In this document: positions 8,927-60,638 of the stretch, piece by piece
How the letters are laid out: each line of letters begins with the position of its first letter
Numbering within the stretch: the stretch's first letter is position 1
Assembly (NCBI GenBank): GCA_946630435.1
Contig: CAMOYS010000001.1
Span: 7,433-71,432, forward strand
DNA: 64,000 bases
Source: an uncultured Bacillales bacterium
GTDB taxonomy: Bacteria; Bacillota_I; Bacilli_A; RFN20; CAG-826
Direction: 5' to 3'
Made by a program: the position numbers and the translations under genes
The notes under the pieces: model-generated
Told to the model about the DNA's origin: nothing
Databases searched by the model: none
The model's input: the letters and a program-made list of their open reading frames with translations, nothing else

Positions 8927-8947
8927 TTTGGGACAATTTTTCCCAAA
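8927..8947. repeat. palindromic motif copy 1 (TTTGGGACAATTTTTCCCAAA)
   Basis: Perfect 7-bp inverted half-sites TTTGGGA and TCCCAAA. It lies between the dxs stop and its terminator, upstream of dinB. Confidence 0.7.
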
Positions 8948-8957
8948 TACATGACTT

Positions 8958-8989
8958 GTGAGCCGTTAACGGTTCACTTTTTATTTTAT
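8958..8989 (+). terminator. rho-independent terminator after dxs
   Basis: GTGAGCCGTTAACGGTTCAC hairpin followed by TTTTTATTTTATT. Confidence 0.75.
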
Positions 8990-9042
8990 TGTTTGGTTAA
9001 CATAATATTGAGATTAAAGTTACGATTCTATAAAATAGAAAC

Positions 9043-10260
9043 ATGAGTAAAGCCAAGATAATTCTTCATATCGATTTAAATGCCTTCTTCGTTAAATGCG
9101 AAGAAATTAAAAATCCTGCTCTTATCGGAAAGCCAACCATCATTGGTCATGAAGGAAGAGGAGGAATTGTTTCAACCTGCTCATATGAAGCTAGAAAATA
9201 TGGTGTTCACTCTGGAATGCCGACTTTCCAAGCTAAGAAACTATGTCCTAACTTAATTGTTATTCCTGGTCATTATGATTTATACGAAGAGATGTCAGAC
9301 AAGTTTTTTAATTTTGTAAGACGATATTTCTCTTTATATGAGAAAGCCTCAATCGATGAATGCTTTATTGATGCTACTAAAGAACTAAGCAAAGTAGGGG
9401 ATGTTGTCTCTTATCTAAGAGAATTCCAAGAAACCCTCACAAAAGAGACTGGTTTAACCGTTTCTATCGGTGTCTCTCCAACTCGATTTTTATCTAAGAT
9501 GGCTAGTGATATGGAAAAGCCAAATGGCTTAGTCATCCTAAGAAGAAGAGATTTTAAAGAGAAAATCTATCCTCTTCCAATTGAATCATTCTTTGGAATA
9601 GGCCGTAAAACTTCTCCAGAACTTCGTAAGATGGGGATAAACACCATCGGAGACCTTGCTAACTTTATTAATAATAAAGAAGATGAATCTAGCCGCTTCT
9701 TTGGCAAATTCTATTATGTTCTAAAAGAATGGGTTAATGGCTACGGAAACGATGAAATCGATGTTAAACCTTGGGATCCTAAATCAATTGGAAACTCGAG
9801 AACACTTAGAAAAGACACTGCTTCTTTTGAAGAAATCGTTCCTATGCTTAAAAAACTCGCTAAAGAAGTGAGTGACCGCGCTATCGAAGCGGATAAAATC
9901 GGTAACTCCGTCCAATTAACCCTTAAGGACGCAGAATATGTCTCTGGTTTTAAATCTATAACTAGAAGTAAGCACCTTGATAAATACACTAACGACTACA
10001 ACACTATTTATAATACCGCCTACACTTTGCTTGAAAATAACCTAGGCGAAAACCCAATTAGACTCGTAGGAGTGTCTTTAAATAACCTCATCGATAAAGG
10101 GGAAGAACTTGTCCAATTATCAATTTTTGATAACTTCGAACAAATAGAAGAAGAAAACTCCACCAAACTTTTAGTGCACGAATTAAACCGTAAAATGAAA
10201 AAGGATGTCTTTAAGACTCTACGCGAAAAGAAAAGAGATGATAAGTATGGAAATAAATGA
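9043..10260 (+). CDS. dinB: DNA polymerase IV (Y-family)
   Basis: 405 aa; the N-terminal HIDLNAFF...SIDECFID region is the UmuC/DinB signature. Confidence 0.9.
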   Translation: MSKAKIILHIDLNAFFVKCEEIKNPALIGKPTIIGHEGRGGIVSTCSYEARKYGVHSGMPTFQAKKLCPNLIVIPGHYDLYEEMSDKFFNFVRRYFSLYEKASIDECFIDATKELSKVGDVVSYLREFQETLTKETGLTVSIGVSPTRFLSKMASDMEKPNGLVILRRRDFKEKIYPLPIESFFGIGRKTSPELRKMGINTIGDLANFINNKEDESSRFFGKFYYVLKEWVNGYGNDEIDVKPWDPKSIGNSRTLRKDTASFEEIVPMLKKLAKEVSDRAIEADKIGNSVQLTLKDAEYVSGFKSITRSKHLDKYTNDYNTIYNTAYTLLENNLGENPIRLVGVSLNNLIDKGEELVQLSIFDNFEQIEEENSTKLLVHELNRKMKKDVFKTLREKKRDDKYGNK

Positions 10261-11125
10261 AGCAATCGCTCTTTTCATTAAGTATATGCGTGTCGAGAAA
10301 GGCGCTAGTAACGAAACTATCGCCTCTTATCAAAGCGATCTTGAACTATTCGCTAAAGCTTTAAAACTCAAAAACGTTGAAGATTTAAGCCCGTATTCCA
10401 TCCAAGATTATGTCCGTATTCAGTCGAGAAATCTTTTAGTGGTCTCTACAATCTTGAGAAGATTATCCGTTACTCGAAATTTCTATCGCTTCTTAGAAGC
10501 GGAAGGCTATGTTAACGATGAACTTAAACGCTTTGAAGTCCCACGTAGCCCATCTCATCTCCCTGTAGTTTTAACCGTAGAGGAAGTTGAAGAACTATTA
10601 AACGCGCCTGATATCAATACGAAAGATGGCGCTAGGGATAAAGCAATGCTAGAAGTCATGTATTCTAGTGGTCTTCGGGTTAGCGAACTCCTCTCTTTAA
10701 AATTTAAAGACATCAACTTCGAATCTGGAATCATAAGCGTTAGAGGTAAAGGGAACAAAGAAAGAAAAGTTCCAATTGGTGAATACGCTTTAGAATATTT
10801 AAACCTCTATGTCCAAACCTGGCGAAAGAAAAATGTTAATCGAACGAGTCCGTTCATATTCTTAAATAAATATGGAGAACCATTATCCCGTCAATTCTTC
10901 TTTAGAAGAGTAAGAGAATACGCTCTTAAAGCGGGCATAAGTAAAACAATTAGCCCACACACCTTAAGGCACTGTTTCGCTACTCACATGCTTGAAAATG
11001 GCGCCGATCTTCGCGCTGTCCAAGAAATGCTCGGTCATGAAAACATTGCCACAACCGAAATTTACACCAATATCTCGGTTAATCGCGTTATGAGTGCATA
11101 TAACTTGTTTAACAAGCGCAAATAG
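10247..11125 (+). CDS. xerD: tyrosine recombinase XerD/XerC family
   Basis: The catalytic C-terminus is RHCFATHMLENGADLRAVQEMLGHENIATTEIYT. The track ORF starts at 10205, but the conserved XerD N-terminus aligns with the Met at 10247 (MEINEAIALFIKYM). The xerD-deoB context matches B. subtilis ripX-drm. Confidence 0.8.
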   Translation: MEINEAIALFIKYMRVEKGASNETIASYQSDLELFAKALKLKNVEDLSPYSIQDYVRIQSRNLLVVSTILRRLSVTRNFYRFLEAEGYVNDELKRFEVPRSPSHLPVVLTVEEVEELLNAPDINTKDGARDKAMLEVMYSSGLRVSELLSLKFKDINFESGIISVRGKGNKERKVPIGEYALEYLNLYVQTWRKKNVNRTSPFIFLNKYGEPLSRQFFFRRVREYALKAGISKTISPHTLRHCFATHMLENGADLRAVQEMLGHENIATTEIYTNISVNRVMSAYNLFNKRK

Positions 11126-11157
11126 AATAAATTTATTGTTGGTAAAGGAGAAAAAAC

Positions 11158-14079: not shown

Positions 14080-14106
14080 ATATAAATATTTAAATTCAAT
14101 TAAATT

Positions 14107-14132
14107 GCGCGAAAAATTCGCGCATTTTTATT
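14107..14132 (+). terminator. rho-independent terminator after the ABC permease
   Basis: GCGCGAAAAATTCGCGC hairpin followed by ATTTTTATT. Confidence 0.75.
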
Positions 14133-14162
14133 AGTCAAAATTTAAGCTGCAGAAGTCCGCTC

Positions 14163-14201
14163 TTTGGGAATAATTTTCCCAAACGTTTGAGTTCCTATAA
14201 T
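14163..14201. repeat. palindromic motif copy 2 (TTTGGGAATAATTTTCCCAAA, then N7-TTCCTATAAT)
   Basis: Inverted half-sites, followed by the conserved downstream TTCCTAT element. Confidence 0.7.
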
Positions 14202-14209
14202 TTATCTAA

Positions 14210-14570
14210 ATATTTCTTTTTGTGCGTGTAAAATTATTAAAATCTAGATATGCATACATAAATTAAAAATACGTATCGCGTGGGCAATAAAATTTAGTTA
14301 AATTCATAGGCACGAAATAATAAAAAATTAAATTTAGAAATAGAAATATAAGGATGAATACGCTTGCGAAAAAAATAATAATTTGGCGCGCATTAAATTA
14401 ATAAATCAAGTAGGGGTGAGCGTGTCAAAAAATAAAAAATTACGCACACGCTATAAGTATCATAAACGAGTGCACGCTCATAAATAATCTATATCCAAGT
14501 GCACGAGTAAAGTATAAGAGCATAACCCATGTGCATATAAATAAAATCTACCCACGTGATGCGGATAGAT
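14210..14570. repeat. degenerate roughly 27-bp periodic, iteron-like array in a convergent intergenic region
   Basis: About 12 units. Each is a GC-rich 8-14-mer containing a CGTG, CACG or GTGCAC core (for example CGAGTGCACGCTC, CAAGTGCACGAG, CCCACGTGATGCGG) followed by an AT-rich spacer (ATAAATAAAATC-like). Confidence 0.55.
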
Positions 14571-14573: not shown

Positions 14574-15098
14574 TTAAGAATATTTATCAAAGTCGTCTGG
14601 AGGGACCGGCTGGTTAAGGTCGACTTTTGGTCTTGTTTCTTTATAACCTTTAAAGTCCACAATGAAGGAAGAGACAGTAAATACGCACGCTGCGATAAGC
14701 ATGTAATAGTTAAGTGTGAGGGCAGCGCCTAAGATTAAAACTGTACCCGCAAGAATAGTAAATGGAGCAGGGATTTTAATGAAGGCAAAAAGGTAACGAG
14801 GGTCATATCCGTGAGAGATGAAGACGACGTAAAGAATGAAATAAGCTCCACCAAAAACGATGCAGAAAAATGTGTAAGTGAAGAACCATCCGTTATAGCT
14901 AAATCCATGTGAATAGAGTAGGGCAAGAACGGTTGCGGCAATCCCAGAAAGAATCTCTAAAATGAAGAAGAGAAAAGTAGGGAACTTGAATAGACTCACT
15001 AAGATCTTTCCTTTGCCAGACGCAATGAAGTGAATCACCTTAGGCATGAAGAGGAAAAATGTAAATAGAGCAACGTATATTGAAGTCGGCGAGATCAT
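14574..15098 (-). CDS. hypothetical integral membrane protein
   Basis: 174 aa with about 5 transmembrane helices and no recognisable motif. It is flanked by long non-coding regions. Confidence 0.5.
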   Translation of the reverse strand: MISPTSIYVALFTFFLFMPKVIHFIASGKGKILVSLFKFPTFLFFILEILSGIAATVLALLYSHGFSYNGWFFTYTFFCIVFGGAYFILYVVFISHGYDPRYLFAFIKIPAPFTILAGTVLILGAALTLNYYMLIAACVFTVSSFIVDFKGYKETRPKVDLNQPVPPDDFDKYS

Positions 15099-15371
15099 GA
15101 TTTTGATTATAGGTAAAGGCGTCTAATTGTAAAGAAAAATCGGTTGTAGGGAAGGGAAATTAGTAGAAAATTAGTAGTTTTTGAAATCCACTCAGAGTGT
15201 GGAAAACCCCATTTTGTGGGTTATTAACTATATTTTGACAAACTAAGAAATCTGCTACAAAACACGATTAAATCGTGCTTTTATATTCTCTGGTTAACAT
15301 AATAGAGATTATGCGAAGTAATATATTGATAGCGGATTAGCCTTCTTCTATTACTCTTCTCCACTTTAAGA

Positions 15372-15432: not shown

Positions 15433-15807
15433 TTAGGCTTTACGATTGTCTCTACTAAGGAACTCTTCGAGGTCAATTCTTTCTCTTTCTTCCTTAGTAA
15501 AGATATTAATTATGACATGATTCGCATCGATTAAGATCCAACCTGAGGCGACTTTTCCTTCAACATTTTTGATGTTTAATTTGTTCTTTTCTAAGGCCTC
15601 GACAACGGCTTCTTTTAAGGCATTAAGTTGTCTCACATTTCCCGCTGTGGCTAAGACATAATAATCAGCAAACGGAGTTCTTTCTTTAACGTCCATTGTC
15701 ACAATATCTTGAGCTTTATGTTCGTCTAAAACTTTCTCAACAACGGATAAGGTTTTGTCTTTTCTTGGCATAGTTAATTCTCCTATTTTAAATACATATT
15801 GAAGCAA
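15433..15807 (-). CDS. rsfS: ribosomal silencing factor RsfS (Iojap)
   Basis: 124 aa, DUF143/Iojap family. It is the last gene of the yqeG-rsfS operon. Confidence 0.85.
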   Translation of the reverse strand: MLQYVFKIGELTMPRKDKTLSVVEKVLDEHKAQDIVTMDVKERTPFADYYVLATAGNVRQLNALKEAVVEALEKNKLNIKNVEGKVASGWILIDANHVIINIFTKEERERIDLEEFLSRDNRKA

Positions 15808-16880
15808 GCATCAGTTAGCTTGTTGGTAATGTCTTTATTATGTTTTAAAAGATATTTCTTATTATCAGTTAAGGTATCAATGAAACCTTGATGATAGTCT
15901 TTTAAGGCTGAGGCAATTAGCCAACTAGAATCGAATCCTCTAGTCGGTTCAATCTTGTCTGATAGATAAACAATCTGGGCAATCTCATCCATATTCGCAT
16001 TCCCAGTACAATGGAATTTAATTGCATTTAAAATTGATTCATCTTTAATATCAAATTCAGTTCGGGCAATGTATTCTCCAATGAATTGATGGAAGCTAAA
16101 AGGTGGAAGAGTTAAATAACTTGGGTAATGTTTCTTCATGAATTCAATACCCTTAACTCCTATATAATCTTTACTCTTTCCAACATCATGAAGGATGCCA
16201 GCGATATAGGCTCTTTCTGGATTATCTATTTGATTCTTTTTGGCGATTAAATACGCTAAATGGGCCACCTCAATGGAGTGACGTAATCTCGCTTCATCAA
16301 TATGCATTGCAATCTTATTTACAAAGTAAAGACGATGTTTTTCAATGTAAGTTAAAACTTCATTAGGAACATCGAGTGATTTAAGTTCTCTAACATCTGT
16401 GGAACTAACTTCTCCAGAATTATAGAATTCCATCGAAGTCATCTTATAAGTCTCCACTACTTTTTTATCTACTTTGTAGCCAGGACGATCAATATAGATA
16501 ATACTAGTTAAAGAAGCTAATTCTTCCGCGTTTTTCCATTCTGAGAAACGATTTACTTGATCCACCCCTATTAAAAGGTAAAGTTTATCGTTTTTATATT
16601 TTTTCTTTAAATATCTAACAGTATCAATCGTATAGTTAATATCCGCTTTTGATTTGAGTTCAAAATCAGAAATAATTGTGCCGCTTGGGGCGTTTTTAAG
16701 TGCTAATTTAACCATTTTAAGACGGTGTTCACTACTAGTTAATGGTGCTTTCCATCTTGGCGATTTAGCGGGCACTAAAACAACATCCGCGTTTAATTTT
16801 AACGATGCATACATCATTAAGCGGAGATGTCCATTATGAATTGGGTCAAATGTCCCACCAAAAATGATTAAATTACCCAC
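15783..16880 (-). CDS. nadD: nicotinate-nucleotide adenylyltransferase fused to a YqeK-type HD phosphohydrolase
   Basis: The N-terminus carries GGTFDPIHNGH (NadD). The C-terminus carries an HD domain (HSIEVAHLAYLIA...ILHDVGK), which is a separate gene, yqeK, in Bacillus. Confidence 0.85.
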   Translation of the reverse strand: MGNLIIFGGTFDPIHNGHLRLMMYASLKLNADVVLVPAKSPRWKAPLTSSEHRLKMVKLALKNAPSGTIISDFELKSKADINYTIDTVRYLKKKYKNDKLYLLIGVDQVNRFSEWKNAEELASLTSIIYIDRPGYKVDKKVVETYKMTSMEFYNSGEVSSTDVRELKSLDVPNEVLTYIEKHRLYFVNKIAMHIDEARLRHSIEVAHLAYLIAKKNQIDNPERAYIAGILHDVGKSKDYIGVKGIEFMKKHYPSYLTLPPFSFHQFIGEYIARTEFDIKDESILNAIKFHCTGNANMDEIAQIVYLSDKIEPTRGFDSSWLIASALKDYHQGFIDTLTDNKKYLLKHNKDITNKLTDACFNMYLK

Positions 16881-18596: not shown

Positions 18597-21437
18597 CTAA
18601 TCAAAATCAGTATCATCGAAAATGGATACTTGTTTATAGCCTTTTTCTTCCTCCTCTTTCATCTTTTCTAATTTCTCGTTCAAGTTCTTTTCTTCTAAAG
18701 CTTTTTCTTCTTCGAGACGTCTTCTCTCTTCGATTTCTTTCACTTTAGCATCAAATAAACTTTCTTCGTTAACATCTTCGGTGTTTGGGACATTTTGTCC
18801 TAAAGAGTCGACTTCTGCATGATTATTTTCAGAATTTTCTTCCGCTTCTTTTTCTTCAACAGCTGTTTCTTCGAATAATGAAGGAGTGTTTGTGTCACTA
18901 TCTTCTTCATTTTCTTCCTCAAATTCATCTTTAATCATATTGGAAACGATGTCGTTAGAGATGTAATCATCACCATTAACAAAGACAAATTCAATTGAGT
19001 CACCTTTCGAAAGTTTCACTGATCCTGCTTTTGCATATTTATCCATTGGAGTTAAATGATAATCATTTACTTCGATAGATTTTGTCTCTTTAAGCGCGGT
19101 ATTGAAGAATAAAGTTGTAGGTTCTTCTTTATTTAAAACTTTACCTGCATAAATTAAGGTATGTTTTTCGCTCTTGAAGCACTTAAATACTTCAGTTAAG
19201 CGACCAAGTCTTCTAGTAAGCGCTGTGTTACTTGCTTCATAAATTCTAAGGCAACCTTTATCAGTTAAGATTATAATCTTACCTTTAGTTTCATTAACAT
19301 CATAAGCAAGTCCAGTAGCGATAAACGCTCCATTAAGTTTTCCTATTGCTTTTACCCCACCAGATTTAAGTCCTTGTTGAGGAATTTCATTCTCATTAAA
19401 TAAGGAAGAGAAGCCATTTGTGAGGAATAAAAGGATATTAGAGTTACCTCTTGAGAACATAACTTCTTTCACTTCATCATCCCCTAGTAATTTCATGCAC
19501 ATTACTGACTTAGAATGTCTCACGATTGGGAATAATGAGAGAGGTAGACGCTTAATTTGTCCAAATTTAGAGACAAGAATAAAGAATAAGTCATCTCTAA
19601 ATGTTTCAACGACAAAGGCGCGTACGATTTTTTCATTATTATTTAAGGATGCAAGGTAATTGATATGTTTACCTTCATCTTTCCATTTATTTTCATTGAT
19701 TTCATGAACTGGAATATAAAGATAATTACCTTGGTTAGTAAAGCAGATTAAGAAATCGGTAGTCATAGCCTTACCACTATAGATTAAGGCATCGCCTTCT
19801 TTTAATCCTGGAAGTGGATTATCCCCACTCGAACGGTAAGATTTAACGCTACTACGTTTAATATAACCATCATTAGTGACCGCCACCATCGTTTCTTCTT
19901 TAACGATTAAGTCACGTTTATCAAAGTTGAAGGTATTTTCTTCTTTATCTACGATAACACTTCTTCTTTCTCTACCGTATTTTTGAGAAATCTTACGTAA
20001 ATCAGAGCAAAGTAAACGGTCGAGTTTCTTTCTATCCGATAAGATTCCTTCAAGGTCAGCAATGGTTTGAATTAATGTATTCTTCTCATTAATCAAAGTA
20101 GTCATATCGGTATTAGTGAGTTTATAAAGTTGAAGCATAACGATAGCTTCCGCTTGTGGTTCACTAAAACCAAATTTCTCGGATATATTTTTCTTCGCGT
20201 CTTGTTTATCTTTAGAAGCTCTAATTGTGTTTACAACTTCATCAAGGATGGAAACAGCTTTAATTAAACCATCCACTATTTCAAGACGACCTTTTGATTT
20301 CTTCAAATCAAATTCGCTTCTTCTAGTGATAACTTCAACTTGGTGAGCAATATAAGCGTCAATAAAATCAAGCAAGGTCATGGTTTTTGGTGAACCATTA
20401 ACAATTGCCACCATATTTGGAGAGAACGAACCTCTAAGGCCAGTCTTAGTGTTCAAGTAGTTATAAATAGCTTCCATATTCGCATCTTTTTTAAGATCGA
20501 TAACGATACGGAGACCTTTTTGGTCTGATTCATCTCTAACTTCTAAAATACCTGGAAGAACTTTATCATGACGAAGCATATCGAGTTCATGGACTAAATC
20601 AATCTTGATTGTGCCATAAGGAATCTCAGTGATAACGATGCGTTTTTCTTTATCGTTATCGATAACTTCGGTCTTAGAAGATATTTCAATTCTTCCTCTT
20701 CCTTTGGTGTATGAATCCACTAAAGAAGGCGTTTTATAAATAATTCCACCAGTTGGGAAATCTGGTCCAGGAATGAATTGCATTAGGTCTAAAGATGAGA
20801 CATTTACGTGATTTATCCTATATATAGTCGCCTCAATTACTTCTTTTAGGTTATGTGGAGGGATATCTGTGGCTAAGGCAACAGCAATACCTTCACTACC
20901 ATTTACAAGTAAATTAGGGAAACGAGCTGGAAGGACAACTGGTTCAAAATCATCATCATCAAAAGTAAGCGCCATATCGACGGTATCTTTTTCGATGTCA
21001 CGAATCATTTCTTCTGCGATTAAAGATAATCTCGCTTCAGTATAACGATAAGCAGCTGGTGGATCGCCATCGATTGAACCTTTATTTCCTTGGAAATCAA
21101 TAAGTGGAGCGTTCACTTTCCAGTCTTGGCTCATTCTAACTAAAGCTTCATAGATAGAAGTATCACCATGTGGATGGTATTTACCCATAACTCCACCGAC
21201 GGTGTGCGCTGATTTTCTAGTTGGACGGGTGAAAATATTCCCGTTTTTATACATATAGTAAATGATTCTTCTTTGGACTGGCTTTAAACCATCCCTAGCA
21301 TCTGGAATCGCTCTATCTTGGATAACGTATTTCGCGTAGGTAGCGTAACGAGAACCCATGATTTCTTCCATAGTTTCACTATGGATGTTTTCTTGGATCT
21401 CTTCTTCAATAATTAGGTTAGTGTTCTTCTTAGCCAT
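18597..21437 (-). CDS. parC: DNA topoisomerase IV subunit A (ParC) with a long acidic C-terminal tail
   Basis: 946 aa with the GyrA/ParC N-terminal domain (active-site Tyr region, AAYRYTEARL). No GyrA box QRRGGKG was seen. The plsY-parE-parC context is conserved, and the last roughly 130 aa are Glu-rich and low complexity. Confidence 0.8.
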   Translation of the reverse strand: MAKKNTNLIIEEEIQENIHSETMEEIMGSRYATYAKYVIQDRAIPDARDGLKPVQRRIIYYMYKNGNIFTRPTRKSAHTVGGVMGKYHPHGDTSIYEALVRMSQDWKVNAPLIDFQGNKGSIDGDPPAAYRYTEARLSLIAEEMIRDIEKDTVDMALTFDDDDFEPVVLPARFPNLLVNGSEGIAVALATDIPPHNLKEVIEATIYRINHVNVSSLDLMQFIPGPDFPTGGIIYKTPSLVDSYTKGRGRIEISSKTEVIDNDKEKRIVITEIPYGTIKIDLVHELDMLRHDKVLPGILEVRDESDQKGLRIVIDLKKDANMEAIYNYLNTKTGLRGSFSPNMVAIVNGSPKTMTLLDFIDAYIAHQVEVITRRSEFDLKKSKGRLEIVDGLIKAVSILDEVVNTIRASKDKQDAKKNISEKFGFSEPQAEAIVMLQLYKLTNTDMTTLINEKNTLIQTIADLEGILSDRKKLDRLLCSDLRKISQKYGRERRSVIVDKEENTFNFDKRDLIVKEETMVAVTNDGYIKRSSVKSYRSSGDNPLPGLKEGDALIYSGKAMTTDFLICFTNQGNYLYIPVHEINENKWKDEGKHINYLASLNNNEKIVRAFVVETFRDDLFFILVSKFGQIKRLPLSLFPIVRHSKSVMCMKLLGDDEVKEVMFSRGNSNILLFLTNGFSSLFNENEIPQQGLKSGGVKAIGKLNGAFIATGLAYDVNETKGKIIILTDKGCLRIYEASNTALTRRLGRLTEVFKCFKSEKHTLIYAGKVLNKEEPTTLFFNTALKETKSIEVNDYHLTPMDKYAKAGSVKLSKGDSIEFVFVNGDDYISNDIVSNMIKDEFEEENEEDSDTNTPSLFEETAVEEKEAEENSENNHAEVDSLGQNVPNTEDVNEESLFDAKVKEIEERRRLEEEKALEEKNLNEKLEKMKEEEEKGYKQVSIFDDTDFD

Positions 21438-23413: not shown

Positions 23414-23500
23414 TCAAAATGGATTCTCCAAATACAATTAAGAATTGTAACAAAAATATTATTGAATTGTAATATCTATTTTGTATAATAGATACTCGTT

Positions 23501-24265: not shown

Positions 24266-24601
24266 TAGCAAATTAGTAGTTTTTTAGTCGAAATAATGAG
24301 TGTGAATAAATAAATCACACCTGGAAAACGTCGGTCAAAAAGTTCGATAAATTCGAATGTTTAGATTGACGTTTTTATTTTTATCCACACTGCCTCCCCT
24401 ACAACCACTACTCGGAATTTTATCACTATTAAAAAGAAGCCCGTTAAGGCCCCTATTTCTCCTCTACCCTAAAACTATTAAGCCCTATGTTGTTGTTCTT
24501 CTTTATGCTCCTATTTTGGCGATTTTCGTATTTTAACTTTTCACTAATTTTGAGTATTGTTTTTGTTTCTTTTTTGTACTCTATTTTCCCCTACTCCACT
24601 A

Positions 24602-29765: not shown

Positions 29766-30635
29766 ATGGAAGTTAAAGTTATTAAGCCATTCGGTTATTG
29801 CGCTGGCGTTGAACACGCAATCTTAATGGCGATAAATATTAAACTTAAAAACCCAAATCGACATGTCGTTATTTTGGGGATGCTCGTTCATAATCATGAC
29901 ACGCTTAAAATGCTTAAAAAAGAAGGCGTAGATGTCATTTATGAAAAAGGAAAAACATATTTAGAATTAATAGATAAAGTTAAAGATGATGATATCGTTA
30001 TTTTAACTGCGCATGGTCACGCCCTTGAAGTAGAAACTATCTTAAAAGATAGACATATTGAATATGTTGATACCACTTGCCCATTTGTGAAAAAGAATCA
30101 TGAGCGTATTTTAAAAGCGTTAAACGAAGGCCATGAAGTTATCTATATTGGTAAAGAAAACCACCCAGAAGCTATCGCTGCGTTATCGCTTAATAAAGAT
30201 AAAGTACACTTATTAGATATAAATAAAAATAATAAGTTACATCTTAAAGATGAATCCCCATTCGTGGTGAATCAAACCACTCTTTCAGAGCTTGAAATTT
30301 CCCAAATAGTTGAGAACCTATATGAAATTTATCCAAAAGCGATAATTACTGATACGGTTTGTTATTCATCAAGTGAAAGACAAAAAGCCATCTTATCAAT
30401 AGATAAAGATATCGATATTATTTATGTTTTGGGTAGTACAATTTCCAATAACACTTTAACCTTAAAGAAGCTTGCGGAAGAGTCTCACCCTAATTCAAAA
30501 GTAATCATGATTGAAAATGCTTCCTTTATTAATAAAGAAGATTTAAAGGGAGTAAAGAAAGTCGCTATTACTTCTGGTGCATCCACTTCGAAAGAAACGG
30601 TTCTAGAAGTGAAAGAGTTCTTAGAAAATATTTAA
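29766..30635 (+). CDS. ispH: 4-hydroxy-3-methylbut-2-enyl diphosphate reductase (IspH/LytB)
   Basis: The track ORF starts at 29736, but the IspH consensus N-terminus (MxIxxAxPRGFCAGV) aligns with the Met at 29766 (MEVKVIKPFGYCAGV). Three conserved Cys residues are present. Confidence 0.85.
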   Translation: MEVKVIKPFGYCAGVEHAILMAINIKLKNPNRHVVILGMLVHNHDTLKMLKKEGVDVIYEKGKTYLELIDKVKDDDIVILTAHGHALEVETILKDRHIEYVDTTCPFVKKNHERILKALNEGHEVIYIGKENHPEAIAALSLNKDKVHLLDINKNNKLHLKDESPFVVNQTTLSELEISQIVENLYEIYPKAIITDTVCYSSSERQKAILSIDKDIDIIYVLGSTISNNTLTLKKLAEESHPNSKVIMIENASFINKEDLKGVKKVAITSGASTSKETVLEVKEFLENI

Positions 30636-43423: not shown

Positions 43424-43510
43424 AAATAAACTTCCTCCTCATTAGATAGAATAGTAAATTATACCAACTTTTCTTATTTTATTAAATAAGTTTCGCTCTC
43501 ATTTTGCATA

Positions 43511-43549
43511 TTTGAGACAAATTTTCCCAAAGAGCCGACTTCCTATATG
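43511..43549. repeat. motif copy 3 (TTTGAGACAAATTTTCCCAAAGAGCCGACTTCCTATATG)
   Basis: It lies in the divergent pdp/rsmF-like promoter region and is flanked by TTTTGCATA and ATTTGCATA direct repeats. Confidence 0.7.
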
Positions 43550-43586: not shown

Positions 43587-44879
43587 TTGAACCGAAATTA
43601 TATGGAAAAATTTAAAGAACATCTTCAAAAATATCTTGATGAGAAGACTATTTCTAGCCTCATTGATTCTTTTAGTAAAAAAGAACAAAAAGGTTTGTTT
43701 TTGAATTATCTGAAAATCAATGATGAAGAATTTTTAAAAGAATTCCCTTTCGTTAAACTTCACCCATATGTCGAGCATGGCTATCTTTACGATAAAGATG
43801 ATTATAATTTTGGAACATCATTAATCCATGAGCTTGGTGGAGTTTATATTCAAGATCCATCCGCGATGATTGTTTCTTCCCTTCTACCTATTAATGAAAA
43901 CGATTTAATTCTTGATATGTGTTCCGCTCCTGGAGGAAAGCTTGTTCAAGCCTCTTTAGCGCTTCAAAATAAAGGCCAAATTTTAGCGAACGATCTCTCA
44001 TTTTCGCGTGCTTTAACCTTGTTAAGTAACGTTGAAAGAATGGGTTTAGATAATGTTACAGTTACTTCTTTAGACTTTAAGAGAATCTATAAGAATCTTC
44101 CTAATTATTTTTCTAAAATCATCCTTGATGCACCTTGCTCAGGAAGTGGAATGTTTAGAAAAGATGAAAAGATGATTAAAGACTGGACTTATGAGAAAGT
44201 TATTAAAAATAGCATCATTCAAAAAGAATTAATTGATATGGCTATTTATATGCTTAAAGATGGCGGAACCTTAATCTATTCAACCTGTTCTTATTCATAT
44301 GAAGAAGATGAAGAAATCGTAGAATATGCGTTAAATAATCACAAAGACATTCACCTTATTAATATAAATAATAATATAAAGGGATATCGAGACCCTTCTT
44401 ATAAAGAAACAATCCACCTTTTCCCTTCGATTAATGATGGCGAAGGCCAATATATCGCCATGTTTAGAAAAGATGGTGTTTTAGCCAATAAAAAATTAGA
44501 ACCTCAATTAATTACAAAAGAGAATAAATCCAAAGGCGGAAAACGCATTATCGAAACTTATAAAGTTAACCATCTATTTAAAGATGAAATAATGAAATAC
44601 GCTATCCGTCCTGGAACATTTGTGTCCACCACTTACGATGGCAAAAACGATTTAAAATATGAACATCATTACGCAAGAACTCAACTCTTTGGGAAAAATT
44701 GTCTCAATATTTCAAGAGAAGATACTCTTAAATTTATTAAAGGGGAGCCAATAAAAGTTGATTCAGACTTAGAACACATCTTCCCTACTTATAACGGCTT
44801 AACAATCGGCTATATGAGCAATAAAAAAGGGGTAAGTAAGAATTACTACCCCAAAGGTTTAAGAAAGATAATTAATTAA
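43587..44879 (+). CDS. RsmB/RsmF (NOL1/NOP2/Sun) family rRNA cytosine-C5 methyltransferase
   Basis: 430 aa with the SAM-binding DMCSAPGGK and catalytic DAPCSG...TCS motifs, and an RsmF-like C-terminal extension. Confidence 0.8.
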   Translation: MNRNYMEKFKEHLQKYLDEKTISSLIDSFSKKEQKGLFLNYLKINDEEFLKEFPFVKLHPYVEHGYLYDKDDYNFGTSLIHELGGVYIQDPSAMIVSSLLPINENDLILDMCSAPGGKLVQASLALQNKGQILANDLSFSRALTLLSNVERMGLDNVTVTSLDFKRIYKNLPNYFSKIILDAPCSGSGMFRKDEKMIKDWTYEKVIKNSIIQKELIDMAIYMLKDGGTLIYSTCSYSYEEDEEIVEYALNNHKDIHLININNNIKGYRDPSYKETIHLFPSINDGEGQYIAMFRKDGVLANKKLEPQLITKENKSKGGKRIIETYKVNHLFKDEIMKYAIRPGTFVSTTYDGKNDLKYEHHYARTQLFGKNCLNISREDTLKFIKGEPIKVDSDLEHIFPTYNGLTIGYMSNKKGVSKNYYPKGLRKIIN

Positions 44880-45710: not shown

Positions 45711-45805
45711 ATACTTATATCTCCTTTTATATGATGTAATCATTATATTTTTCATTTATAGTGAATTCAATTTTTTATTAAAAAACTATCAGAAATCCCA
45801 TCAAT

Positions 45806-45838
45806 GGGAAAAATTTCCCAAAGAGCCGATTTCTTAAT
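45806..45838. repeat. motif copy 4 (GGGAAAAATTTCCCAAAGAGCCGATTTCTTAATG)
   Basis: It lies upstream of lipoprotein paralog 2 and is preceded by the palindrome TCCCATCAATGGGA. Confidence 0.65.
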
Positions 45839-50619: not shown

Positions 50620-51714
50620 TTATAGTAAAACGAATAGTTCACGAAGTAGGAAATCAAGGAGCTTTAAACCTTTTTCGGTTGGTTTTATTGATTCGTTAAT
50701 TTCAATTAAGCCTTCCTTTTCCTGTTTTTGAAGGACATCTTTAAACTTTTCTAATGGATCAAAATGGAATCTATTAATAAATGTAGAAACTTTAAAACCT
50801 TCTTTTAATCTAAGATTAAGCATTAAGAAGTCCTCTATTTCTTCGTTTAGAGTGAGCTTTTCTTCAAAGTCTTTATATTCACCTTTTAGATATTTAGTTA
50901 ATGATTTTGTGTTAGTGTAACGAACTCCATTTATATAGCCTGAGGCTCCTAAGCCACAGCCATAATATTCTTCATCTTTCCAATATGTTTTATTGTGTCT
51001 ACTTTCATAGCCGTCTTTTGCAAAGTTAGATACTTCGTAATGAATGTAACCCGCTTCAGTTAGTGTTTTTACGATTAAATCATACATATAAGCATCTTTT
51101 TCATCGCTTAGTGGTTTAATCCCTTCATTATAGAATTTTGAACCCTTAGAAACGCTTAAAGAGTAGATGGAAATATGAGGAGTATCTAAAGATAAGATGT
51201 TTCTTAAGTCTTCTTTTAAAGCTTCCTCATCTTGTCCTGGAAGCCCATATATTAAATCAACATTGATGTTAGTAAAACCATATTCTTTCGCTAACGCCAC
51301 CACTTTTTTAGCGTCTTCAAAAGTATGATGTCTATTAATAGTTTTTAATATTTCATCATGCGTGGTTTGTACTCCAATTGATAAACGATTCACCCCTGCT
51401 TTTCGAAGAACTTCAAGTTTTTCTTTAGTGAGGTTTTCAACGTTAGCCTCAATAGTGAATTCGCCATTTTTCTTAAGATAACTACCTAGGAAGTCCACTA
51501 TTTGGGAAAACTTTCCCAATTCTAATGCGCTTGGAGTACCTCCTCCTAGGTAGATTGTTTCCATTTTTGGAATGTTATATGACTTTATTTCCAAAATTAA
51601 AGCTTCTACATATTTCGAAGCAAATTCTTCGTTATATAGAAGCTTAGTAAAGTCACAGTAACCGCAGATATGTTCACAAAAAGGAATATGAACATAAAGC
51701 GATTTAGTATTCAT
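50620..51714 (-). CDS. hemW: radical SAM heme chaperone HemW (HemN-like)
   Basis: 364 aa with the CEHICGYCDF radical SAM motif and a HemN C-terminal domain. Confidence 0.85.
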   Translation of the reverse strand: MNTKSLYVHIPFCEHICGYCDFTKLLYNEEFASKYVEALILEIKSYNIPKMETIYLGGGTPSALELGKFSQIVDFLGSYLKKNGEFTIEANVENLTKEKLEVLRKAGVNRLSIGVQTTHDEILKTINRHHTFEDAKKVVALAKEYGFTNINVDLIYGLPGQDEEALKEDLRNILSLDTPHISIYSLSVSKGSKFYNEGIKPLSDEKDAYMYDLIVKTLTEAGYIHYEVSNFAKDGYESRHNKTYWKDEEYYGCGLGASGYINGVRYTNTKSLTKYLKGEYKDFEEKLTLNEEIEDFLMLNLRLKEGFKVSTFINRFHFDPLEKFKDVLQKQEKEGLIEINESIKPTEKGLKLLDFLLRELFVLL

Positions 51715-51978: not shown

Positions 51979-53457
51979 TTAATCTCTTTTAATTGGGGTA
52001 TAAACGAACTTATTCTTAACTTGTTCCCGTTTATAATACCCTCTTTTTGCCAAATTATCCATAGAAGTTCTCGCGGTTTCATAAACGCAGCCTTCAGCTT
52101 TCTTAAATTGCTGAATAGTGTAGAACTTACCTAAGGTACAATGTCTCACATAGAAATGCGCTTGCGCTGGGCGAAGAAGTGGATCAGATTCAAGTAAATC
52201 TTCTTCAAGTCTATTGAGAGATTTTTCATCGCTAGGTTTAGCGATATTAACATAGTTAATTTTAGGTGCTTCTTCATCCACTTTAAGTTCTTTAGCTTCA
52301 CGTGGTTTACTTTGAACTTTAACTGGTTCTTCCTTTGGAACGATTCTTTCGAACTTAATTTCGCGAACTGGTTCAGGCTTAATTTCCTTTTCCTCTTTTT
52401 CGTATGGCTTTTCTTCAAGCTTAATACCAAGTTCTTCTTCGATAGCTTCTTTTTCATCTACACCATAGAAAGCATCGCGAGCTTCATCAACTTGGGAACG
52501 CGCAATAGAATCTAAAACTAATTGGATTTCTTTAGAAACTAAGTCATTTGTTAAGTTATTGATATAAGTAATATCTCTAGTTTTTTGAACTTCTCTAAGC
52601 ATTACTTTTACTCTTTCATGTTCATCCACTAAAAGGAGTTCGACTGGAACGATTGAAGCAAGTCTATCGATATCAAACTTTGCAAGCGTAAGTTTAATAA
52701 GAAGAATCGCCATTAGTTCGTTATATTTTTCAAATGGTTTAATGTAATCCATCATATAAAATATGGCGGATAGTTTTACTGGGGAGGAAGCGTTGGAGTT
52801 ATTGATAAAATCAATCAAATCATCCATAAGCGATTCAATCGCGAATGATGGCACTCCACTATATTCTTTATTAATAACCGCTCTAGCAGCACTTCTTTCT
52901 TGGGAATTATATTCACCTTCTCTATAGAAAGAGAGAAGCTCATTTTCACCATTAAGAATTCCATAATAGGTGGCGATTGTATCTTCATTGATGTCATCCA
53001 TCGAATTCTTTTCTAAGTATTCTAAAGCATCATAATAATTAGATACAGGTGCGTACATTCTATCAACTGGACGATGATTGATAATATTATCAACTGCAAC
53101 ATCATTAATGATGATATTTAAGCTTTTCGCTACAGCGATAAGTTCGGCCTTCTTCATCTCATTACTGACAGTTATTCTTTCAATCTTGTTATTAATCCAA
53201 GCGGAAGTCTTTGATAGTAAGCGAGATAATTTAATCGCTAAATCATTGTTCTTTCTAACGATTAAAGAAGTGTTAACAATGTAGTATGCGTTTTTAGACA
53301 CATCATAAATATCGAGGTTTGAAACAAAGCTTGAACGATAGGTCACAATATTGTTCCAAATACCATCGACTAAGTTGGTTCTTAGTTCACGAGCCACCTC
53401 TGATCTTGAAGCGTATATTTCTTCGGAGAATCTGACGGCTAAATTGGAATTTGCCAT
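51979..53457 (-). CDS. Fic-fold-like protein with a degenerate active-site motif and a C-terminal winged-helix-like domain (putative pseudoenzyme)
   Basis: 492 aa. SAIFYMMDYIKPFEKYNELMAILLIKLTL aligns with the Fic core IHPFxDGNGRxxRLLxNLxL, with H to K, D to K, G to Y, G to E and R to L substitutions. A KE-rich linker and a C-terminal wHTH-like segment follow. Confidence 0.4.
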   Translation of the reverse strand: MANSNLAVRFSEEIYASRSEVARELRTNLVDGIWNNIVTYRSSFVSNLDIYDVSKNAYYIVNTSLIVRKNNDLAIKLSRLLSKTSAWINNKIERITVSNEMKKAELIAVAKSLNIIINDVAVDNIINHRPVDRMYAPVSNYYDALEYLEKNSMDDINEDTIATYYGILNGENELLSFYREGEYNSQERSAARAVINKEYSGVPSFAIESLMDDLIDFINNSNASSPVKLSAIFYMMDYIKPFEKYNELMAILLIKLTLAKFDIDRLASIVPVELLLVDEHERVKVMLREVQKTRDITYINNLTNDLVSKEIQLVLDSIARSQVDEARDAFYGVDEKEAIEEELGIKLEEKPYEKEEKEIKPEPVREIKFERIVPKEEPVKVQSKPREAKELKVDEEAPKINYVNIAKPSDEKSLNRLEEDLLESDPLLRPAQAHFYVRHCTLGKFYTIQQFKKAEGCVYETARTSMDNLAKRGYYKREQVKNKFVYTPIKRD

Positions 53458-55408: not shown

Positions 55409-55699
55409 GACAATATTATAAATAAAATATAAAAAGATACGATAATTTTATTAAAGAAATCTTGCTTTGAGTAAAGAAAAGAACAGCATAGGCTGAATAA
55501 AATGAATATTGGAGACCTATCTACCTATACTGTTCGATAATAATTATTATTATTTCCCTACTTTTGTAAAGTAAATTTTGATGTCATAAGCTCGTTTTTT
55601 GATGTCAAATTTTAATCATTGACCGAGCAGAAAAAATATGTAAGGTTTTTCATTGACTATTTTGTCATTATATAAAAATTTTTCATAAATATTCCACTA

Positions 55700-55758
55700 T
55701 TTGAGACAAATTTTCCCAAAGAGTTCAGTTCCTATTGATTTATATTTTTCCCAAACAG
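55700..55758. repeat. motif copy 5 (TTTGAGACAAATTTTCCCAAAGAGTTCAGTTCCTAT) plus the partial TTTTTCCCAAACAGG
   Basis: It lies in the lepA upstream and dnaJ downstream region, and CCACT(a/t)T direct repeats flank the roughly 70-bp unit. Confidence 0.7.
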
Positions 55759-55774
55759 GCCACTTTTTAGCGAT

Positions 55775-55803
55775 AAAAAAGGTTGCCCTTTAATTGGACA
55801 ACC
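55775..55803 (-). terminator. terminator after dnaJ
   Basis: Minus strand: GGTTGTCCAATTAAAGGGCAACC hairpin then TTTTTT. Confidence 0.65.
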
Positions 55804-55804
55804 A

Positions 55805-56962: not shown

Positions 56963-57035
56963 AGTTATCCTCCTTTCACGCTAAGAGGGATGAAATGAAT
57001 CCATCCCTTTGTAGCAAGTTGTTAATTATTTATAA

Positions 57036-58862
<1,827 letters not shown>

Positions 58863-58873
58863 TTATTTCCTCC

Positions 58874-59422
58874 TTATGCGTCTAAATCAGGGACGTCTTC
58901 TTTATTTTCTTCGTTATCATTACCCGCGACCACGACAATTGATGGACGGATAAGATGTTCGTGAAGTTTATAGCCTTTAGCTTTAACTTCGAGTATGGTG
59001 TTTTCTTTCGCGTCAGGATCATTTCTTTTCTCTAACGCTTGCATGGTGACGGGATCAAATGTATCCCCCACCTTTGGTGATAACTCAATTACTCCGTTAT
59101 TTTCTAAGACAGTAACTAAGTTTTGGTAGATGTATTTAAATCCGATTAAGAAGTTTTCCATCTCCTTACTTGAGGCTTCGTTTTGAAGAGCCATATGGAA
59201 GCCATCTAAGATTGGTAAGAGATCTCCGACAAAGCCTTCAGCGCGATATTTAATTGCTTCTTTATGATCTTTTTCAACGATCTTACGAAGGTTTTGCATA
59301 TCAGCGTAAGCGCGGTAGTATTCATTTTTCCAATGTTCACAATCGCTTTTGGCTTTTTCGAGTTCTTCGTTCTCTTTTTTATCCACTACTTCTTCGTTTA
59401 ATTCTTCTTTATTTTTCTTCAT
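58874..59422 (-). CDS. grpE: nucleotide exchange factor GrpE
   Basis: 182-aa GrpE fold, between hrcA and dnaK. Confidence 0.9.
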   Translation of the reverse strand: MKKNKEELNEEVVDKKENEELEKAKSDCEHWKNEYYRAYADMQNLRKIVEKDHKEAIKYRAEGFVGDLLPILDGFHMALQNEASSKEMENFLIGFKYIYQNLVTVLENNGVIELSPKVGDTFDPVTMQALEKRNDPDAKENTILEVKAKGYKLHEHLIRPSIVVVAGNDNEENKEDVPDLDA

Positions 59423-60440
59423 CCTTATCCTTTCTTACTTGCTTAGAAGCGAAGTATTTTTCTATTTCATTTATGAGATATTCCATGTTGGACATAACTT
59501 TGTTATAGTCCATTCTCTTTGGTCCGACGATTGCGATATTGGATTCGTTATTGTTAGGGAGAGTGATTTTAGCAGAGATGATTGATACATCTTCATCCGC
59601 TTCATCTTCCCCACCGATATGAATCGAGATATCTTTATCATCGTTACTTAAGGATTGGAATACTTTTGGTGATTCGAATAATTCGAGGAGTTTTTTAATC
59701 TTTTGAGCGTCTTCTGAGAACTCTGGTTGCTCGAATAATTCATCGGTACCATAAGTTTTAAGACGATCTTTAGTGAAACTTACGAACGCTTCCATCATCG
59801 CTTGATAAATCATGTCTTGGTCAATGATGTAATCACTAATTAATGGCTTAATCGCTTGCATCTTAGGAACGAGTTCACTAATGGATGTTCCGTTTAAGCG
59901 GTCATTAAGTAATTTGACTATCTTAGTGACATCTTCAAGGGAGATTTTATCGTCTAAGACAAATGTCTTATTTTCAACATAACCTTGGTCAGTTACAAAG
60001 ACACAAGTCGCAGAATTAGAAGATAATGGTACGAGTTGAACAGAGATTAATTTCTCTTCATTAGCTTTAGGTCCTAAGACGATAGAGGCTAAGGAAGTCA
60101 TTTCGGATAAGATCTCTAATGATTGAGAGATAACTTCTTCAACTGATTGAATCTTTTCGTTGAGGACGTTTTGAACTTTATAACGGAACTCTTCATCAAC
60201 GGATTTCTCTCTAAGATTATCAATATAGTATCGATATCCTTTACTAGAAGGAACGCGCCCGGATGAGGTATGAGGTTTTTCAAGATAACCTTCAAGTTCA
60301 AGAGCGTTCATTTCAGCGCGGATTGTCGCACTTGAGTAATCGAGATGATATTCTTCGATAAGAGTTTTGGAGCCAACTGGTGTCGCGTATTTAATAAAGT
60401 ATTCAACGATTAACTTTAAGACACGGTCACGTCTATTCAT
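59409..60440 (-). CDS. hrcA: heat-inducible transcription repressor HrcA
   Basis: 343 aa with an N-terminal wHTH. It is the first gene of the dnaK operon, and CIRCE elements lie upstream. Confidence 0.9.
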   Translation of the reverse strand: MNRRDRVLKLIVEYFIKYATPVGSKTLIEEYHLDYSSATIRAEMNALELEGYLEKPHTSSGRVPSSKGYRYYIDNLREKSVDEEFRYKVQNVLNEKIQSVEEVISQSLEILSEMTSLASIVLGPKANEEKLISVQLVPLSSNSATCVFVTDQGYVENKTFVLDDKISLEDVTKIVKLLNDRLNGTSISELVPKMQAIKPLISDYIIDQDMIYQAMMEAFVSFTKDRLKTYGTDELFEQPEFSEDAQKIKKLLELFESPKVFQSLSNDDKDISIHIGGEDEADEDVSIISAKITLPNNNESNIAIVGPKRMDYNKVMSNMEYLINEIEKYFASKQVRKDKDEEK

Positions 60441-60453
60441 AAGTCACTCCTTT

Positions 60454-60480
60454 CTGGCACTCCCACATTTCGAGTGCTAA
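60454..60480 (-). promoter_or_regulatory. CIRCE operator 1 (HrcA binding site)
   Basis: CTGGCACTC-N9-GAGTGCTAA against the consensus TTAGCACTC-N9-GAGTGCTAA, 14 bp upstream of the hrcA start. Confidence 0.8.
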
Positions 60481-60498
60481 CATTATTATAAAGTTAAT

Positions 60499-60526
60499 TT
60501 TGGCACTGTCAACACCTAAGTGCTAA
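60499..60526 (-). promoter_or_regulatory. CIRCE operator 2 (HrcA binding site)
   Basis: TTGGCACTG-N9-AAGTGCTAA, a second inverted repeat with 9-nt spacing, about 20 bp upstream of CIRCE 1. Confidence 0.65.
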
Positions 60527-60598
60527 AAAGATGAAAAATTTGTGCTTACTTAAGTAAAAAGAAAGAAATATGAGGTTAAGTCACTAAGAAGTCACCTC

Positions 60599-60638
60599 TT
60601 TGAGACAAATTTTCCCAAAAGTGGCATCCCCTATTTCC
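60599..60638. repeat. motif copy 6 (TTTGAGACAAATTTTCCCAAAAGTGGCATCCCCTATTTCC)
   Basis: It lies in the divergent hrcA/gmk-like region, upstream of the CIRCE elements. Confidence 0.7.

Follow-up and report, generated by a model that had tools for sequence, protein, structure and literature searches.

A short, near-palindromic DNA motif recurs along a stretch of 64,000 nucleotides from an uncultured Bacillales bacterium (GenBank assembly GCA_946630435.1, contig CAMOYS010000001.1, positions 7,433 to 71,432; hereafter the window), and the locus thus raises the question of what this motif is: a regulatory site serving a dedicated set of genes, a promoter, a structured transcript, or a relic of mobile DNA. 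We tentatively favor the explanation that it belongs to a lineage-specific repeat that was seeded by a burst of copying and is now fixed in place, with a 21-bp core that would be kept as the duplex-DNA recognition site of a putative protein acting at the level of the chromosome. Both the binding of a protein to this core and the effect of such binding are points that we infer from the DNA sequence.

The spaced palindrome TTTGRGA-N7-TCCCAAA occurs in exact form five times (at 8927, 14163, 43511, 55700 and 60599), compared with 0.01 occurrences expected in dinucleotide shuffles. A profile built from the copies (seeded with six and finally comprising 26) identified 11 members in the window, with scores of 13.9–43.4 bits and a density of approximately one copy per 6 kb. 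When applied to 100 dinucleotide-shuffled windows, the final profile returned 0.01 matches per window at a threshold of 12 bits and no match at one of 14 bits; the six-copy seed profile returned none at 12 bits. A sequence-only reading of this DNA had reported a recurrent motif in six or more copies, and repeat finding together with the profile searches confirmed and enlarged that family. Its variant at 45806 and its half copy at 55746 were both recovered by these searches, whereas a degenerate half copy claimed at 23447 gave no profile match at E ≤ 10. A literature search with motif strings found only primers and unrelated matches.

When all copies are registered on the center of the core, the consensus reads ATAGGAAnTC-nnCTC-TTTGrGAmAA-w-TTTTCCCAAA-GAGnn-GAnTTCCTAT, a palindrome preceded by (AAAAACAy) and followed by (rTGTTTTT), with single copies spanning 50–60 bp. 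The unit had previously been taken to measure 24–40 bp; it is in fact approximately 55–60 bp long, as the palindromic consensus extends outward to ATAGGAAnTC...GAnTTCCTAT. It is flanked by inverted A-runs and T-runs, not by direct repeats. The 21-bp core, TTTGrGAmAA-w-TTTTCCCAAA, consists of one strict and one relaxed half-site, and these 10-bp half-sites, separated by about one helical turn, are aligned in register across 25 copies. In most cores of the window species, a relaxed half of the form TTTGrGA(C/A)(A/T)A, mostly TTTGrGAcAA, is paired with the strict half TTTGGGAAAA. The 11 members are listed below with their surroundings and with the loci (L numbers) that hold orthologous copies; L056 and L141 belong to a related species introduced later.

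8908–8960, plus strand: copy 1 (42.8 bits), in the dxs/dinB gap, with its left arm overlapping the dxs stop codon and the core TTTGGGACAATTTTTCCCAAA; it lies within the dxs 3' untranslated region, upstream of the dxs terminator hairpin (8958–8977). Orthologues: L037 (RUG13318) and L141 22483–22543 (related species).
14150–14200, plus strand: copy 2 (40.4 bits), in a convergent gap about 1.1 kb from the dif site and downstream of the terminator of an ABC operon (14106–14124). Orthologues: L040 and L141 17248–17311; absent in L139 and L140.
18767–18818, plus strand: parC-tail copy (28.8 bits), inside the open reading frame (ORF), in the acidic C-terminal extension, encoding ..HAEVDSLGQNVPNTEDVN... 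Orthologues: L040 and L141 12620–12666.
30298–30324, plus strand: ispH half copy (15.3 bits, E 8e-4), a strict half plus the right arm ATTTCCCAAATAGTTGAGAACCTATAT, encoding ..ISQIVENLYE..; the weakest member, with a weak orthologous match at L141 1112–1142.
43497–43549, plus strand: copy 3 (41.7 bits), in the divergent gap between pdp and the rsmF-like gene, with a perfect core and right arm and a left flank unrelated to the consensus. Orthologues: L041 and L056 17709–17762.
44671–44712, minus strand: copy in the rsmF-like ORF (34.7 bits; residues ~363–374, ..ARTQLFGKNCLNIS..), comprising arm, spacer and core; it is identical at 31 of 34 positions to an intergenic copy on another contig (L042). 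Orthologue: L056 16556–16589.
45786–45837, plus strand: copy 4 (30.5 bits), with a variant core and a 1-nt deletion, downstream of the rbfA terminator and immediately upstream of the -35 box of the next minus-strand gene. Orthologue: L056 15876–15931; absent downstream of rbfA in L058.
51483–51531, minus strand: hemW copy (27.3 bits; residues ~62–78, ..ELGKFSQIVDFLG..), comprising arm, spacer and core.
55684–55739, plus strand: copy 5 (43.4 bits), between the dnaJ terminator and the lepA promoter region, with the lepA promoter candidates more than 100 nt downstream. Orthologues: L004 and L056 ~5958–6002.
55743–55772, plus strand: half copy abutting copy 5 (13.9 bits), the strict half TTTTCCCAAA plus a degenerate arm. 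A degenerate orthologous copy lies at L056 ~5903–5934.
60580–60636, plus strand: copy 6 (39.9 bits), in the divergent gap between hrcA and a guanylate-kinase-like gene, approximately 70–90 nt upstream of a perfect hrcA promoter and CIRCE elements and distinct from both. Orthologue: L056 1034–1088.

A consensus that is palindromic over approximately 55 nt invites the idea of a structured RNA or single-stranded DNA hairpin, serving as a terminator, an mRNA stabilizer or a substrate of the repetitive extragenic palindromic (REP) type, and one copy (14163) was indeed flagged by a terminator-like scan. The palindrome, however, is a property of the consensus and not of the individual copies. In a 23-pair hairpin evaluated over 25 copies, 60.2% of cells pair, whereas random exchange of the 3' partners among copies gives 61.9%, a value equal to or above the observed one arising in 473 of the 500 shuffles; no excess of compensatory changes between the arms was found in these copies, with an independent permutation test giving P > 0.6 for every segment. 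Half-sites within one copy are less alike than halves drawn from different copies (permutation test), and the side of the better-kept arm is not tied to the strict half (eight copies one way, six the other). The commonest core, TTTGAGA...TCCCAAA, carries an A-C mismatch in the middle of its 7-bp stem. Real terminators stand next to the copies rather than within them, and Rfam gave no match at the gathering threshold over the whole window and nothing beyond chance-level matches around the copies even at E ≤ 1. Because the two arms of a copy do not covary, the conserved entity is not an RNA or single-stranded DNA hairpin, and this already disfavored explanation can be given very little credence. 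In some copies, a perfect core is set in unrelated flanks (L008 4795, L027 4168 and the left flank of copy 3 at 43521).

Does the motif instead serve the genes beside it? The window is only 7.3% non-coding, yet this fraction holds seven of the 11 copies (P = 3e-6), and of the 17 internal gaps between genes that measure 80 nt or more, six hold a copy. The earlier description of the motif as intergenic thus stands as an enrichment between genes, although four copies lie inside ORFs. Across the window, the loci of RUG13318 (a genome of the same species, described below) and L142, approximately 16 copies lie in tandem gaps, six in convergent gaps (14163, L026, L030, L038, L042 and L142) and three in divergent gaps, in addition to the four in coding sequence. 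Promoter and terminator scans placed sigma-70-like promoters and intrinsic terminators adjoining the copies, not inside them; the distance from copy to promoter ranges from zero (overlap) to more than 100 nt, some copies lying 40–165 nt upstream of unrelated promoters. The neighboring genes in the window (dxs, dinB, an ABC permease gene, parC, ispH, pdp, rsmF, rbfA, hemW, dnaJ/lepA and hrcA) are functionally unrelated housekeeping genes, with roles in isoprenoid synthesis, translesion repair, topoisomerase activity, translation and chaperoning, and those at other loci include BspA-like surface leucine-rich-repeat, GNAT, polysaccharide and helix-turn-helix genes.

These observations bear directly on the proposal of the sequence-only reading that the motif is the operator of a dimeric transcription factor controlling a dedicated regulon (dinB, pdp/rsmF, lepA, hrcA and others). 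Part of this proposal has survived: the half-sites of the core form an inverted repeat at a spacing of one helical turn, a geometry that fits a protein site on duplex DNA; several copies lie upstream of genes; and phylogenetic footprinting, which had been suggested as a check, revealed that orthologous sites are kept in a related species. The dedicated regulon has not. Six copies lie in convergent gaps, one in a 3' untranslated region and four in coding sequence; the distance to promoters is inconsistent; the neighboring genes share no common function; and the window holds approximately one copy per 6 kb, with six of the 17 larger gaps occupied. Given this arbitrary gene context, with promoters and terminators adjacent to the copies, control of individual genes as operator or promoter is ruled out as their general function, and we regard a dedicated regulon as very unlikely.

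The same reading had offered an alternative-sigma promoter, with TTTCCCAAA as the -35 element and CCTATA as the -10 element. A constant spacing of 16 nt between TTTTCC and TAT speaks for this idea, as does copy 2, which reads TATAAT at the -10-like place. In most copies, however, the final base of the supposed -10 box is not T (TATATG, TATGTG, TATAGG, TATTGA). TTCCTAT mirrors the left arm ATAGGAA (and the supposed -10 box its ATAGG) and is therefore an outer arm, not a -10 box. Moreover, since the element is mirror-symmetric, such a promoter would fire in both directions. Four of six copies had been said to point toward a downstream plus-strand gene; by the present gene calls only three of the six intergenic copies face a gene, copy 2 lying in a convergent gap, and further copies occupy convergent gaps and coding sequence. 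An alternative-sigma promoter is thus extremely improbable.

To place the family taxonomically, the exact core was scanned against 596 Gb of species-representative reference genomes, yielding 54 loci. Family members were found in two genomes, namely RUG13318, a metagenome-assembled genome (MAG) of an uncultured rumen Erysipelotrichaceae bacterium (16 loci, 17 matches), and RUG14619 (one match). The core is enriched in RUG13318 only; the remaining loci are single core-only matches without arm similarity. The window is 94–97% identical to contig 1 of RUG13318 and thus represents the same species. A profile scan of the RUG13318 loci detected 26 copies. Of the 20 copies at loci outside the span of the window, 19 lie between genes, the exception falling at residue 7 of a called ORF. 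In a metagenome scan, the true members were short contigs of the window species only, nearly all other matches being core-only and attributable to chance (among the at least 80 loci listed). Searches of plasmids and phages with the consensus element yielded nothing, and viral contigs gave one chance match. No transposase gene was present among the annotated ORFs flanking the repeats of the window and of three RUG13318 loci, and no gene for a REP-associated tyrosine transposase (RAYT) was seen in the DNA examined. Separately, a different recurrent element, built around the perfect palindrome AAAGTTTTGGGAAnATTTTTCCCAAAACTT...TATAGTTTTAGGAATTATTTTCC and carried by several contigs of Bacteroidales and other unrelated gut bacteria (L009, L033, L053, L098, L110, L127 and L138), came up solely because its core fits the search pattern.

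Syntenic DNA from relatives, fetched through homologues of HemW and ParC, revealed how the copies have fared over time. In a related species whose HemW is 84% identical (201-kb contig k141_276837; loci L056 and L141), a copy lies at the orthologous place for all 11 comparable window copies, including those in hemW, rsmF, ispH and the parC tail, and no extra significant copies (E < 0.01) were found in the regions compared. All five copies in the covered RUG13318 tiles are likewise retained. More distant relatives (L058, with 64% HemW identity, and L139 and L140, with 76% and 73% ParC identity) keep the same genes and the same dif site but have no copy at the same places; there, no counterpart repeat occupies those places, and the loci contain repeated copies of a distinct short motif, CTACTAAT. 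Compared with these outgroups, the unit constitutes additional sequence in the dxs/dinB gap, which measures 64 nt without the element in L139 and 127 nt with it in the window, and in the parC tail. From full retention in the related species and absence from the loci of the distant ones, we conclude that the family originated within a narrow clade, multiplied, and has stayed in place ever since. An origin by copying and pasting is suggested by the arms and spacers, which share a consensus beyond the core, and by the status of the unit as extra sequence. Seeding would have taken place in an ancestor shared by the two rumen Erysipelotrichaceae species, which are closely related, with the copies probably immobile thereafter.

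Over nine orthologous pairs, the arms diverge by 24.6%, the core by 15.9% and the sequence outside the unit by 17.1%. Nearly half of the core differences (14 of 30) fall at three positions: the R, the central W and core position 14. At the 18 fixed core positions that remain, the three having been set aside after the data were seen, 16 of 162 sites differ, compared with 70 of 284 in the arms (P = 1e-4) and 110 of 643 in the surroundings (P = 0.02). Position 14 changes in a recurrent manner, with T in the window species and G in its relative in four of the nine pairs; a fifth pair, that in hemW, does so after a 1-nt indel. The related species accordingly reads TTGTCyCAAA where the window species has TTTTCCCAAA, and in most of its cores both halves are of the ACAA type. 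With moderate statistical support and a partly post hoc definition of the fixed positions, this pattern points to a core kept close to an optimum that differs between species, and to arms that drift. Selection by a binding protein could keep the core there, as could conversion limited to the core.

All four in-ORF copies in the window, in hemW, the rsmF-like gene, ispH and the parC tail, are in frame, and three of the four (all except that in parC) add no residues. The hemW copy, which matches approximately 30 of 34 specified positions, is not an insertion: it aligns without a gap to E. coli HemN (1OLT), and a codon alignment of the window, L056 and L058 shows the same length as in the orthologue of the repeat-free relative L058. 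The hemW orthologue in the related species carries the core variant of that species and a different peptide (NWNNLSQIVNFLG), the switch of core being accompanied by a local difference in frame (ELGKF to NWNNL). The rsmF-like copy shows no gap relative to structure 3m4x, although it falls within a weak second aligned segment, and the ispH half copy entails no change in length relative to solved IspH structures. The parC-tail copy lies within a 23-residue stretch that is missing from L139, and is therefore plausibly an in-frame insertion. In-gene copies share spacers with nearby intergenic ones, as illustrated by CCACTA in both the hemW copy and the copy at 55700. ParC itself (18597–21437) has an acidic, low-complexity C-terminal extension of approximately 170 residues, and its total length varies from 912 to 950 aa between relatives.

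Such behavior recalls motifs that spread by molecular drive, in which sequence-biased uptake, cleavage or repair favors the core, so that the core tracks the machinery of each species even in tolerant coding regions. Consistent with this mechanism, the coding-sequence copies lie in poorly conserved protein segments, the core follows the "dialect" of the species at the price of altered amino acids, the variant of the core shifts with no loss of orthologous positions, and both orientations occur. The density of the family (17 exact matches in the genome and, locally, approximately one copy every 6 kb) is nevertheless far below that of known uptake sequences, its distribution is regionally biased rather than uniform, and long shared arms would not be expected; no uptake specificity is known in Gram-positive bacteria. 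Molecular drive is thus a most doubtful explanation.

The regional bias just mentioned concerns the end of chromosome replication. Between 14 and 16 kb in the window, the coding strand switches from plus to minus and the GC skew from positive to negative, and a recombination site of the chromosome terminus lies at the same place:

15292–15319, minus strand: dif, ACTTCGCATAATCTCTATTATGTTAACC, which reads ACTTCGCATAA-TCTCTA-TTATGTTAACC in the canonical 11-6-11 arrangement.

The location of this site is conserved across four lineages; in L139, L140 and L141 it lies downstream of rsfS. Given dif and the coincident switches in gene strand and GC skew, the window spans the replication terminus. In RUG13318, the 251-kb contig bearing dif accounts for ten of the 17 exact matches, seven of them within approximately 45 kb of the site; the binomial probability of this bias ranges from 6e-3 to 8e-6 as the share of the genome assigned to that contig falls from 27% to 12.5%. 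The remaining seven exact matches are spread over six other contigs of this fragmented MAG, one of them approximately 6 kb from a 16S rRNA gene. In the 10 kb beyond each end of the window, the density of copies continues, with one copy to the right and two to the left.

How, then, is the family best explained? Under the reading we tentatively prefer, that of a burst-seeded and now immobile repeat, the 21-bp core would be retained as the double-stranded DNA site of a putative sequence-specific protein while the outer arms drift. This protein would act on the chromosome rather than on adjacent genes, with operon-boundary architecture, terminus-proximal architecture or a repeat-processing protein as candidate roles. 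Several observations weigh against such a reading. Neither a candidate binding protein nor a clade-specific gene was seen in the syntenic regions compared, and a shared consensus of approximately 55 bp exceeds what a binding site needs. Divergence of the whole core is no lower than that of its surroundings, and constraint on the core becomes visible only once the three variable positions are removed. By our estimate, the recurrent T/G change reaches approximately 0.03 after correction for 21 positions and is moderately significant only. As to the terminus, copy orientation does not flip at dif, both orientations occurring on both sides, and additional copies near the exact matches are as frequent elsewhere (five in 56 kb of other contigs) as on the dif contig (four in 72 kb); the enrichment may thus stem from clumping or from a sub-family and not mark out a chromosomal domain.

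The main rival holds that the family is a selfish or neutral relic: a small, palindromic, non-autonomous element, resembling a miniature inverted-repeat transposable element (MITE) or a REP sequence, that amplified once, often by local hops, and is now decaying with no host function. The uniformity of the core would then reflect youth, or occasional gene conversion or template switching, which could also have written copies into tolerant coding stretches. Much of the evidence suits this account, including the palindromic consensus with its A- and T-run flanks, the placement of copies beside terminators at operon ends in every gene arrangement, the extra length relative to outgroups, clumping on the kilobase scale, an overall core divergence near the neutral level, and the spacers common to in-gene and nearby intergenic copies. 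Enrichment in the terminus region fits as well, since mobile DNA often accumulates there. A relic thus accounts for the arms, the clumping and the terminus bias. It fits other observations less well: neither gain nor loss has occurred at the 11 comparable sites in two species; neither a transposase in the repeat-flanking ORFs named above nor related sequence in plasmids, phages or viral contigs was detected; the fixed core positions diverge less than the flanks; perfect cores stand in random flanks, unlike the result of uniform decay; and the hemW, rsmF and ispH copies involve no change in length. Furthermore, RecA-dependent conversion between 21-bp cores is inefficient. On balance, we consider a neutral relic unlikely, though it is a rival to be taken seriously.

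A more specific proposal is that the core is the site of a young DNA-binding protein that organizes the terminus-proximal chromosome, analogous to matS/MatP or to the XerD-binding sites that unload SMC (structural maintenance of chromosomes) complexes, in a Gram-positive lineage without MatP. A small repeat would have spread the sites, selection on them would override coding constraint (as in hemW and rsmF), and the sites would co-evolve with the specificity of the protein. This proposal appears improbable. A replication fork trap of the Ter/RTP or Ter/Tus kind was also considered and rejected, as the strict half-site shows no switch in orientation at dif. Likewise, the outer arm ACTTCCTATAt is identical to the XerC arm of dif (ACTTCGCATAA) at 7–8 of 11 positions, a resemblance noticed post hoc and judged to be at chance level.

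Several further features surround dif. A lone half site resembling a XerD arm, TATTATGTTAACC, occupies 8995–9011 on the minus strand in the dxs/dinB gap, 6.3 kb from dif, and is kept in L139 and L141 (22445); a tyrosine-recombinase (Phage_integrase) gene at 10205–11125 lies between this half site and dif. The half site may bind XerD, or it may mark the border of an old element that exploited Xer recombination. Approximately 120 nt from dif, at 15157–15179 on the minus strand, a tandem CTACTAATTTnCTACTAAT stands upstream of an unannotated ORF of 174 aa (14574–15098); the motif also occurs at 24270–24281 and 7032–7043. The tandem is exactly conserved in L040, L139, L140 and L141, and L140 contains further copies of CTACTAAT in nearby intergenic gaps. 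Next to dif, at 14200–14570, lies an AT-rich non-coding stretch dotted with some ten short, GC-rich boxes (type ACGCRTG or GTGCACG), containing no ORF of at least 80 residues and no gathering-threshold Rfam match; equivalents lie at 10487–10947 in L139 and ~11250–11700 in L140.

Elsewhere in the window, the lepA leader (55440–55520, minus strand) contains approximately 60 nt that are almost perfectly conserved with the related species, AAAGAACAGCAtAGGCTGAATAAAATGAATATTGGAGACCTATCTACCTATACTGTTC, ending in GAACAG...CTGTTC; this may be a leader structure, although it gave no Rfam match at E ≤ 0.1. An ORF of 492 aa between lepA and hemW (51979–53457; 504 aa in the related species) has no family assignment and shows weak matches to Fic and, at its C-terminus, to a winged-helix domain (Penicillinase_R). 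Finally, 15783–16880 encodes NadD fused to an HD phosphohydrolase of the YqeK type, with a full-length match to NCBIfam PRK07152 (nicotinate-nucleotide adenylyltransferase).

Small dispersed repeats are common in general, and the family described here is a further kind of such repeat in bacteria; the idea of a regulon is set aside. Its combination of features is nonetheless unusual, encompassing a recent birth with repeat-free outgroups, full retention in two species, failure of the REP hairpin test, members in conserved genes without change in length, a species-specific core at orthologous places, and a concentration around dif. If a binding protein exists, the family would offer a tractable case of genome-wide protein sites that were seeded by a repeat and co-evolve with the protein, and it might expose a terminus-organizing system in relatives of the Firmicutes. 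Without such a protein, the family would be another lineage-specific junk repeat, which annotators should mask and not read as a regulon.

Among known systems, the REP sequences and bacterial interspersed mosaic elements (BIMEs), and the RAYT-associated REPINs of Proteobacteria, are similarly short, lineage-specific and mostly extragenic, and in placement and lineage specificity it is the REP/BIME type that the family resembles most; they sit at operon ends beside terminators whatever the arrangement of the genes, have a palindromic consensus that differs between species, and persist for long periods at fixed places. REP sequences and BIMEs are also binding sites for host proteins (integration host factor and gyrase). 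Unlike REP sequences, however, the copies studied here are not self-complementary and show no compensatory changes, lack a 5' motif of the GTAG type, are low in number and in some cases lie in frame within genes. MITEs (Correia/NEMIS, RUP, BOX and ERIC) and Rickettsia palindromic elements (RPEs) are likewise small, non-coding, dispersed units with inverted-repeat ends that were amplified in one lineage. The present unit differs from MITEs in measuring only approximately 55 bp, in having no evident target-site duplication, in the lack of a parent insertion sequence among the plasmids and phages searched, and in showing no presence/absence polymorphism across two species. RPEs also include copies in frame in protein genes, a situation that the parC-tail copy resembles as a plausible in-frame insertion, yet they add 30–50 residues whereas the hemW, rsmF and ispH copies add none.

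The uptake signal sequences of Pasteurellaceae and the DNA uptake sequences of Neisseriaceae share with the family species "dialects" at orthologous positions, copies in variable parts of proteins that affect the encoded peptide, and both orientations; compared with these, the window family is 10–100 times less dense and non-uniform, and its unit is much longer. Parallels to the role that we tentatively propose are found in sites of chromosome architecture, such as matS/MatP, the Noc-binding sites (NBS/Noc), parS/ParB and the XerD-binding sites of the B. subtilis terminus, which are short, near-palindromic duplex sites that are blind to gene context, occur within genes as well, and are regionally biased, as the family is toward the contig bearing dif. 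By inspection, the window core is unlike matS (GTGACRNYGTCAC), NBS (ATTTCCCGGGAAAT) and parS (TGTTNCACGTGAAACA). The family further differs from these sites in its asymmetric core, in its very narrow clade, and in its long shared arms, which point to descent by copying.

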